From a plasmid, in assembly GCF_056712565.1 (NCBI RefSeq), contig NZ_JBWXXM010000002.1: a stretch of 64,000 nucleotides of DNA. One strand, 5' to 3'. Below, piece by piece: positions 36,591 through 38,919 of the stretch. The number at the start of each line of letters is the position of its first letter. The first letter of the stretch is position 1. A model generated the notes under the pieces. That model made no database searches. It had not been told where the DNA came from and saw only the letters and a list, made by a program, of their open reading frames with translations. The translations under genes and the position numbers were made by a program.

Positions 36591-36766
36591 CGTCCTTCAG
36601 TCAACAAATGCACTACCTTTTTTGAGTCTCCACTTTCCAGAGCAGAAAACACGTTACCGATTCTACCAACAGCTTGTATCTGAGTGATAACCCCAGTCTT
36701 GTAATCATCTAGGATCCCTGACAGGAAAGCGTTCAGTTTTGTCTGTTCGCTTAGCGAAAGCATGTA
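36572..36766 (-). pseudogene. Small gene (originally 67 aa) separated from its start codon and RBS by IS21
   Basis: Rejoining flanks across the IS gives ATG(38905-38907)-TCC-TAC-A | TG-CTT... = MSYMLSLSEQ...; track ORF 36569-36778 starts at an ATG inside the IS end. Confidence 0.45.
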
Positions 36767-36826
36767 TGTCAACGCCACGATGTTTGACCGTTATTTGCCA
36801 TTTTCATGCCCGCTAAAATACTTTCG

Positions 36827-37627
36827 TTACTGATGCTGTCCGCTTTTCACCATTTCATCATCACTGATTGGCGTTGTGTTTTTGGTCAGCACTCCAGCTT
36901 TACGTTTCTCTTTTAACCGGTAACTCTCTCCTTTGATATTCAGCGTGGTTGAGTGATGTAGCAGCCGATCCAGGATCGCTGTTGCCAGCACGTGATCTCC
37001 GAACATTTCTCCCCAGTCTGCGAACCCTTTGTTTGACGTCAGTATGATGCTCGCTTTTTCATATCGACGGTTCAGTAGCCGGAAGAACAGGCTGGCTTCC
37101 TCTCTGTTCATCGGCAGATAGCCTATTTCATCCAGGATCAACACCCGGGCATAACTCAGTTGCTGTAGCTGACGCTCCAGCCGGTTTTCCTGTTTCGCTT
37201 TCATCAGTGTCGCGATCAGTCTGTCCAGTGGCATAAACAGTACCCGATGTCCCGCATCCACCGCTTTCACGCCAAGAGCTATGGCCAGATGCGTTTTTCC
37301 TACACCAGGAGGTCCCAGCAGGATCACGTTTTCGCTGCGCTCCACGAACGCCAGACCAGCCAGTTCCCGAACAACCTTACGGTCGATGCCCGGCTGGAAG
37401 GTAAAGTCGAACTGCTCCAGCGTTTTGACCCACGGCAGACGAGCCTGCTTCAGCCTGGACTCCATACCCCGCTGATGCCTGCCGTTCCATTCCTGCTGTA
37501 GCGCCATGCACAGGAACTCCCGGTAGTTCAGCTCTTTTTTAGCTGCCTGTTCCAGCAGGCTTTCAACGTGATAACTCAGATGCTCCATTTTCAGGCGACT
37601 CAGCAGGACTTCCAGCTCATGCATCAC
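36827..37627 (-). CDS. istB: IS21-family helper ATPase IstB
   Basis: ORF 266 aa; Walker [11 protein letters not shown]. Confidence 0.9.
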
Positions 37628-38796
37628 AACAGCTCCTCATAGGTACTCAGTGGCCGATGTTCCACCTGACTGACCTGCTGCCAGAGCGGGGCGTGATGCT
37701 CCGGCACTGTCTGCCAGCCAGACGATGCCGAACAGAGGCGATGTGAGGCCACCAGTTTCTCATTACTGTAGATCCGCAACTCGTCATCCAGCGATATTCG
37801 TATCGATACCGGCTGACCACACAGCGCTTCGGGAACGCTGTAACGATTACCACCAACCTCGATATAGCTGTCCCAGGACACATGGCGGATGTCGAAGTAA
37901 CTGGTATCGAAGTCCGTATCGGGTAACGGCTGCAGATGTTCCTGCTCCAGCGCGAAGCGCTGTTCCGGCGTTTCTTTGAACTGACGAAGCTCCCGTTTGT
38001 CAGCCACATCGGCTATCCATTGCTCCAGTTGTTGATTGACATGAGTGAAGCTGTCGAACCTGCGGTACCGGACGAAGAAGTTCTCCTTGAGGTATTTCAC
38101 CATCCGCTCAACCTTACCTTTTGTTCTGGCCCTGCGTGGACGGCATGCCCGTGGCAGGAAGTTATAGTGGTCAGCCAGCAACAGGAATCCGGAGTTGAAC
38201 ACGACTTTCCCGTTGTTATTCTTCAGCACCGCAGCCTTCTGGTTATCAACCAGCACCGTTTTCACACAACCACCGAAGTAGCGGAAGGCGCGAACCAGTG
38301 ATTCGTAGGTATGCTCAGCATCCTGTTTTGGGGCAGCGAAGACATGAAAGCGGCGGGAGAACCCCAGCGTATTAACCGCAAAGTTAACTTTGCACCGTTG
38401 CCCGGCAACTTCCACCTCAACTTCGCCCCAGTCGTGCTGGAGCTGGTATCCGGGCTGAGTTTCGAAGCGAACTGTTCTTTTTGACGGACGCATTTTACGT
38501 TTGGGCTGGATGTAGTAACGCAGCATGGAACGTCCGCCCGTATAGCCCATTGCCTTAATCTCCGCGAAGATAACCTCGCTATTCCAGACATTCTCTGCCA
38601 GGCGCATGTCGATGTAATCCATAAACGGTTTCAGCTTAACCATTTTGTGGCGGGTTTTTCTGGCTGGCGGTTCAGGGTATTTGAGGTAACGTCTGACCGT
38701 TCGTTCAGAGCAACCAATCTGAGTCGCAATATCGACAATGTACGCGCCCTGCTGGCGCATTTGCTTTATCATGTAAAAGTCCTCTCTGCTCAGCAT
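37624..38796 (-). CDS. istA: IS21-family transposase IstA
   Basis: ORF 390 aa; stop overlaps istB start. Confidence 0.9.
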
Positions 38797-38919
38797 GTTG
38801 ATGTCCTTTTTGGTGTGAGAACCTTAAGGAAACAACATGTTGGGTGGAGCGGACAATCCAAATGGTGAATTACCGTCTTATATCACTGGCGCTAACATGT
38901 AGGACATTTTTTCTCCATT

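Follow-up and report, generated by a model that had tools for sequence, protein, structure and literature searches.

IS21 inserted at codon 4 of a conserved small plasmid gene downstream of a DUF1173 gene: a probable recent knock-down or knock-out

An IS21 element inserted at codon 4 separates a small gene, the last of a plasmid operon, from its own start codon and ribosome-binding site in the 64,000-nt stretch of plasmid DNA analyzed here (the window; Table 1). The insertion is probably recent and lineage-specific, and most likely abolishes or strongly lowers the expression of a small accessory gene. In the reading that we propose, an intact, probably active IS21 made a simple insertion at codon 4 with the usual 4-bp duplication. 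The ORF is now parted by 2.1 kb of IS from its GGAG and ATG, and likewise from the end of the DUF1173 gene that precedes it. The 64 native codons that remain are intact, with in-frame GTG, TTG, and ATG codons that have no ribosome-binding site. At most leaky translation would be expected from this remnant, more likely from the ATG of Met4 than from the GTG of the IS, on transcripts that read through the co-oriented IS from the operon promoter or from a weak istAB promoter.

Table 1 Features of the IS21 insertion and of the surrounding operon (positions in the window).
Feature	Position	Strand	Details
Terminator-like hairpin at operon end	36559..36583	-	Overlaps small-gene stop codon
Small-gene remainder	36569..36766	-	65 codons + stop (Y3, M4 ... 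G67)
Retained native Met4 ATG	36761..36763	-	Alternative start, 64-aa product
Target-site duplication, copy 1	36763..36766	.	TGTA on plus strand, TACA on minus strand
Outward-facing TTGACA (-35 box)	36767..36772	-	Right-end tip of IS21; doubles as fusion codons 3-4, TTG-ACA
IS-derived in-frame GTG	36776..36778	-	Candidate fusion start; CAC on plus strand
istB, AAA+ helper ATPase, 265 aa, intact	36827..37624	-	NCBIfam IS21_help_AAA, 301.9 bits (cut-off 200)
istA, IS21 DDE transposase, 390 aa, intact	37624..38796	-	NCBIfam transpos_IS21, 284.9 bits (cut-off 160)
Target-site duplication, copy 2	38898..38901	.	TGTA
Orphaned 5' end of small gene	38898..38916	-	GGAG 38916-38913, ATG 38907-38905, TCC TAC A
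DUF1173 gene	38920..40239	-	Directly upstream, undisturbed; Pfam PF06666, E 4.6e-39
55-aa ORF	40262..40429	-	Operon member upstream of DUF1173; served as control ORF
Dcm-like DNA cytosine methyltransferase	40490..41959	-	First module gene; NCBIfam PRK10458, 845.7 bits (cut-off 710)

The element spans positions 36767-38897 on the minus strand, as obtained from a reading of the region, the ORF list, and a script. Its length of exactly 2131 bp between identical TGTA repeats, first noticed in a sequence-only reading of this DNA, is borne out by the sequence. Insertion occurred after nucleotide 10 of a 204-nt (67-codon) ORF, within codon 4, in agreement with the earlier placement of the element 10 nt into a 67-aa gene. 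Read on the minus strand, the far flank is GGAG-AAAAA-ATG TCC TAC A and the near flank goes on as TAC ATG CTT TCG..., with the duplicated TACA restoring TAC-ATG on the distal side of the insertion. The native ATG and GGAG do lie across the IS, within 38905-38916, as had been claimed. The GGAG is spaced 5 nt from the native ATG, which in turn follows the DUF1173 stop codon at a distance of 12 nt. When the flanks are joined minus one TGTA copy, they yield a 204-nt ORF encoding MSYMLSLSEQ...RTG (67 aa).

Hundreds of plasmids contain the rebuilt empty site (661 bp) without interruption and at 100% identity. At least 80% of the site is covered in one piece by 1134 of the 1148 PLSDB records that match it and by 284 of the 289 matching E. 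coli records. The comparison with uninterrupted alleles that the sequence-only reading had proposed was run, and more than 1100 plasmids have the empty site, with TGTA present only once. Because the empty site is identical and uninterrupted in other plasmids, the insertion of IS21 is real and not a chance arrangement. The empty-site plasmids are large (~150-370 kb), mostly conjugative, and come from Escherichia, Salmonella, Enterobacter, and Klebsiella, with pAPEC-O1-R as one example; their backbone and that of the window are taken here to be IncHI2 or IncHI2-type. Other parts of the window contain an IS66-family transposase, hipA, two IS26 copies, and umuC, as well as a Tn3-family (Tn1721-like) remnant with tet(A).

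The interrupted ORF is the last gene of an operon whose order is conserved, namely a Dcm-like methylase, a 55-aa ORF, DUF1173, and the 67-aa ORF. The Dcm-like methyltransferase is an orphan MTase by PADLOC, and the gene directly upstream of the insertion is labeled DUF1173 family protein in RefSeq. For DUF1173 the description is bioinformatic only, as a PD-(D/E)XK-like domain that lacks the active-site signature and is joined to an N-terminal zinc motif (PMC3045609).

The inserted element aligns with the IS21 of pRP1 (CP152306) over 2131 of 2131 nt at 98.6% identity and with 0 gaps. It is thus an isoform of the same IS, for which the full-length nucleotide identity to the reference IS21 has to reach 95%. 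In addition to the family models listed in Table 1, the istA product is matched by Pfam rve and Mu-transpos_C_2, and the istB product by Pfam IstB_IS21 (E 2.5e-90). IstB is identical to RP1 IstB, and IstA is one residue off its RP1 counterpart. The ends of the element form imperfect inverted repeats (TGTCAACGCCACG... and TGTTAGCGCCAGTG...) that match at 11 of the first 13 positions, and the termini take the form 5'-TG...CA-3'. The IS21 of RP1/R68/RP4 (IS8), an IncP-1 element and the prototype of the IS21 family, shares with the window copy its length of 2131 bp, the TG...CA termini and 4-bp duplication, and a terminal TTGACA in the right TIR together with a TATAAG-type -10 in the left TIR (PMC10122671). 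The two elements differ by 29 substitutions, and position 4 of the left TIR distinguishes TGTTAG in the window IS21 from TGTCAG in RP1. The window copy also differs in its surroundings, an IncHI2-type backbone and a site unseen in the collections searched.

Duplications of 4 bp also flank other IS21 copies, with ACGT in pRP1 and CTTG in the E. coli plasmid pCRST035_2. Copies that are 100% identical to the window IS21 sit at other sites in six other plasmids, and this variant is therefore probably mobile. The window element has intact genes and ends and is probably active. There is no second or tandem IS21 copy within the 64,000-nt window.

The exact IS21 junction occurs in none of the 72,556 plasmids of PLSDB and in none of 5,426 complete E. 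coli genomes, and a collection of 15 billion proteins does not contain the 69-aa fusion product that the junction could encode. Where contigs carry the 64-aa form beginning at Met4, the locus is either intact, with its start called elsewhere, or broken at another point, and not at this IS21 junction. The distribution of these sequences suggests that the insertion is most likely a recent, lineage-specific event.

What remains downstream of the element keeps 64 of the 67 native codons, which are still headed by an ATG (Met4), and the ORF has no further in-frame ATG after it. The codon in the IS end that had been proposed as a start is in frame with the remainder, as claimed, but it is not an ATG; on the minus strand it reads GTG. 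If this GTG were used, the product would be fMet-ALTY-MLSLSEQ..., a fusion of 69 aa, and an in-frame TAA stands four codons upstream of it. The IS end additionally holds an in-frame TTG (36772-36770, minus strand). The corresponding N-terminal peptides would be fM-ALTYMLSLSEQTK, MLSLSEQTK, and MSYMLSLSEQTK. Some homologues have Ile at position 4 and the Shine-Dalgarno sequence lies 5 nt from the first ATG, so the native start is Met1 and not Met4.

The anti-Shine-Dalgarno duplex energy is -6.4 kcal/mol at the native start, compared with a window-wide background mean of -2.4. At the candidate starts that are left to the remnant, it amounts to -2.4 kcal/mol for the IS GTG, -2.4 for the IS TTG, and about -1.5 for the Met4 ATG. 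By this measure, there is no Shine-Dalgarno sequence upstream of the GTG, the TTG, or the Met4 ATG. Initiation that is independent of a Shine-Dalgarno sequence is known in enterobacteria. The 110-nt RNA around the junction is predicted to fold at -27.7 kcal/mol (z = -2.3), a stability reached by 3 of 200 shuffled sequences, and the predicted hairpin is thus only moderately significant. Within this predicted structure, the GTG falls inside one stem, and the AUG of Met4 falls in a 9-bp stem formed with IS bases 36818-36826. The distance from the istB stop codon to the GTG is 48 nt, which makes translational coupling between the two unlikely. If any protein is made, the Met4 ATG would be a likelier start than the IS GTG.

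In IS21, the right TIR holds a -35 box and the left TIR a -10 box, and the two give a strong promoter only in tandem copies (PMC10122671). The promoter of a single copy is weak, and IstA occludes the ends (PMC10122671). At the junction studied here, the outward-facing TTGACA points into the gene remnant, and the best hexamer located 14-20 nt downstream of it, a range that includes the 16-18 nt expected of a hybrid promoter, matches TATAAT at only 2 of 6 positions. A promoter scan of the IS/ORF junction likewise finds no promoter-like site. The geometry points the same way, as a transcript from such a hybrid promoter would start ~30 nt past the IS end, beyond the GTG, the TTG, and the Met4 ATG. 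Because the -35 box lies inside the coding sequence of the fusion, a transcript initiated from it could not hold these start codons. A hybrid promoter built on the terminal -35 of IS21 is thus rejected on the missing -10 and the wrong geometry. The earlier proposal that the IS end could act as a promoter for the fusion finds no support, as the end offers a -35 only, no -10 and no Shine-Dalgarno sequence, and candidate starts that lie in predicted stems. As far as the tandem-junction promoter of Reimmann et al. 1989 is presented in PMC10122671, the same right-end -35 abuts the downstream gene fragment in our case, but it has no partner -10 at 14-20 nt, belongs to a single IS copy and not to a tandem, and is placed within the fusion coding sequence.

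Transcription from further upstream is a different matter. On the minus strand, along which both IS21 and the operon are oriented, no intrinsic terminator is predicted inside the element, so that transcripts probably still reach the remnant; the native terminator-like hairpin (36583-36559) still ends the transcription unit. Read-through from the operon promoter or the istAB promoter would be the only plausible source of its mRNA. This raises the alternative that the small gene is still functionally expressed by read-through, with translation starting at the GTG, which gives the MALTY fusion, or at the Met4 ATG. Besides the shared orientation and the missing terminator, it is favored by the availability of in-frame GTG, TTG, and ATG codons. 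It is also compatible with the nature of the N-terminus, whose first 6 residues are an unconserved coil both in the family alignment and in an AlphaFold (AF2) model, and with natural family members that have starts further in (P0053 and P0062). Because the N-terminus is such a coil, any Met4-initiated or MALTY-prefixed protein that was synthesized would probably fold correctly and be functional. Initiation is where this alternative meets its difficulties, in that neither the GTG, the TTG, nor the Met4 ATG is preceded by a Shine-Dalgarno sequence, the GTG and the Met4 ATG are both in predicted stems, and the gap between the istB stop codon and the GTG is too long for coupling to be likely. The closeness of the small gene to the DUF1173 stop codon has also been lost, and the promoter of a single IS21 copy is described as weak, with ends occluded by IstA (PMC10122671). 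Taken with these points, functional expression is unlikely, and a strong knock-down or knock-out is the reading that we prefer.

A second alternative holds that the ORF is a preferred target or that its loss is selected, which would make the IS21 insertion adaptive; we regard it as very unlikely. It draws on the E. coli plasmid pCRST035_2 (NZ_AP045807.1), where this ORF is hit by an independent IS21 that points the same way and lies 90 bp deeper in the gene. The insertion in pCRST035_2 resembles that of the window in its IncHI2-type backbone and its 4-bp duplication. It differs in its site (CTTG, corresponding to window positions 36673-36676, inside codon 34), in the sequence variant of its IS21 (99.0% and 97.9% identity to the window copy), and in that its IS21 is split by IS26, whereas the window element is intact. 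Public protein data hold some 12 further chimeric or truncated forms of the ORF, including IS26 junctions, and additional breakpoints fall no more than 10 nt from the start codon. The controls, however, behave in much the same way. The 55-aa ORF of the same operon occurs in an equal number of chimeric forms, and in part of these the elements are the same. In PLSDB, coverage is broken in 14 of 1148 records for the small-gene segment, whereas the two 661-bp control segments next to it have 7 such records of 1143 and 7 of 1141. The excess is at most two-fold and, by a rough Poisson estimate used here in place of a computed test, not significant. A hot spot or selected loss as an effect specific to this ORF is thus rejected on the control ORF and the control segments, and the disruption counts are explained by the deep sampling of a non-essential IncHI2 backbone.

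It is highly improbable that the 67-codon ORF is not a gene at all and that IS21 landed harmlessly in non-coding DNA between DUF1173 and a convergent coiled-coil gene, even though RefSeq/PGAP leaves the ORF unannotated in pAPEC-O1-R and most other records, no family of Pfam, NCBIfam, or PADLOC matches its 67-aa product, and a Foldseek search of the product against the PDB returns only generic or designed helical bundles (E >= 1.2). Conservation nevertheless marks the ORF as a real gene. At least 1000 contigs carry the exact 67-aa product, recorded as a hypothetical protein. An exhaustive HMMER search gives 34 hits, among them proteins of similar length (roughly 57-72 aa) at 36-70% identity that conserve sequence motifs. 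The family core reads LDDYK.G.IT..QAV...EGRKL.R, and the identity of the query to 16 aligned members is 33-85%. Four other hits (P0048, P0049, P0059, and P0067) are long repeat proteins with 4-9 stretches each and were treated as spurious; the sequences of P0049 and P0067, when read, are those of tandem-repeat proteins.

Position and substitution pattern point in the same direction as the homology. Two homologues, at 85% and 51% identity, keep the length of exactly 67 codons and a spacing of 10-12 nt after the DUF1173 gene, and the same module surrounds both, with the 55-aa ORF present at the 51% locus and uncalled at the 85% locus. A homologue of 39% identity adjoins an uncharacterized 411-aa gene and a DUF3701 integrase, with no DUF1173 neighbor; as this homologue sits in a different context, the link to DUF1173 is not universal. 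In the comparison with the 85% homologue, dN/dS is 0.29 for the small ORF (Fisher p = 0.01). Such a ratio is seen only in the frame of this ORF, since the other frames are either interrupted by stop codons or have ratios of 0.7-2.2. The dS of the small ORF (0.253) is close to that of DUF1173 (0.251). The good Shine-Dalgarno sequence at 5-nt spacing before the native ATG and the AF2 model built with the family alignment, which confidently predicts a three-helix bundle (mean pLDDT 86), complete this picture.

The insertion is an ordinary, textbook-type IS allele of an already known kind, on a heavily sampled resistance-plasmid backbone. A more consequential outcome, in which the gene product is still made, as the Met4 form or the MALTY fusion, only via istAB transcripts, is decidedly unlikely, as is its variant in which loss is selected. 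If it were true, the dose of a conserved DUF1173-partner protein would depend on how strongly the IS21 transposase operon is transcribed, and the variant, selected loss of the small protein, would explain why a second IS21 struck this ORF independently and in the same orientation. Under the preferred reading, that of a knock-down or knock-out, the value of the finding lies first in annotation, as PGAP usually misses this 67-codon gene, which in the window should be annotated as a pseudogene interrupted by IS21. The plasmid would also be a natural knock-down of an uncharacterized DUF1173 partner, and as such it can be compared with plasmids that are otherwise identical and have the site intact.

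The 67-codon ORF that IS21 splits at codon 4 in the window is a conserved gene, apparently under selection. It belongs to a family of homologues of roughly 57-72 aa, its dN/dS is 0.29, and a confident model predicts a three-helix structure for its product. The ORF carries no RefSeq/PGAP annotation in pAPEC-O1-R and most records, and one source wrongly labels a member of the family 'phosphoheptose isomerase'. Together with genes for a methyltransferase, a 55-aa product and a DUF1173 protein it makes up a four-gene module, which is kept as a block where the small protein is 51% identical (loci L003 and L006 compared). 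PADLOC returned a weak match of the module to the candidate PDC-S68 (E 8e-5).

Features of the module and of the tet(A) region (window coordinates unless stated)
Feature	Coordinates	Strand	Remark
Dcm-like orphan cytosine methyltransferase	40490-41959	minus	module member
55-aa ORF	40262-40429	minus	module member
DUF1173 gene	38920-40239	minus	module member; PD-(D/E)XK-like protein without active-site signature
67-codon ORF, reconstructed	36569-36766 + 38902-38907; locus L001 4084-4364	minus	downstream of DUF1173 gene
Tn3-family transposase, truncated	47333-49153		close to 822-bp repeats
tet(A)	50534-51808		close to 822-bp repeats
Chemotaxis-receptor gene, truncated	57139-58167		close to 822-bp repeats
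354-bp repeat	47299-47652; 52787-53140		two copies
822-bp direct repeat	53140-53961; 56391-57212		two identical copies

The small gene has been interrupted more than once. In the E. coli plasmid pCRST035_2 (L002, NZ_AP045807.1; 3611-6568), another IS21 lies inside the ORF in the same orientation as that of the window, at a site equivalent to window 36673-36676 and with the duplication CTTG; this insertion is independent of the one in the window. The istA of the L002 copy is itself split by IS26, with an 8-bp overlap. Other isolates show additional breakpoints no more than 10 nt from the start codon: in L012 (1-40), foreign sequence ending in ...CCCGGGGCGGTTC directly precedes ATGTCC, and L014 and L015, contigs from different sources, both begin at ACATGCTTT, 1 nt into TACA.

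At the window insertion, IS21 positions 36818-36826 (CGAAAGTAT), just past the istB stop, are complementary over 9 bp to the target at Met4, 36761-36769 (ATGCTTTCG). This complementarity apparently arose by chance, and the stem predicted from it would occlude the retained Met4 ATG.

Elsewhere in the window, each 822-bp repeat codes for an IS6-family (IS26-like) transposase, with ~2.4 kb between the two. The tet(A) gene, the truncated Tn3-family transposase and the truncated chemotaxis-receptor gene look like a Tn1721 remnant.

The 661-bp empty-site segment, which takes in the small gene as well as the 3′ end of the convergent coiled-coil gene (window 36423-36766 and flanks), matched 330 PLSDB records at 95-99% identity, versus 6 and 16 for two adjacent segments. 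There seem to be two allelic lineages, differing mainly in the small-gene segment.
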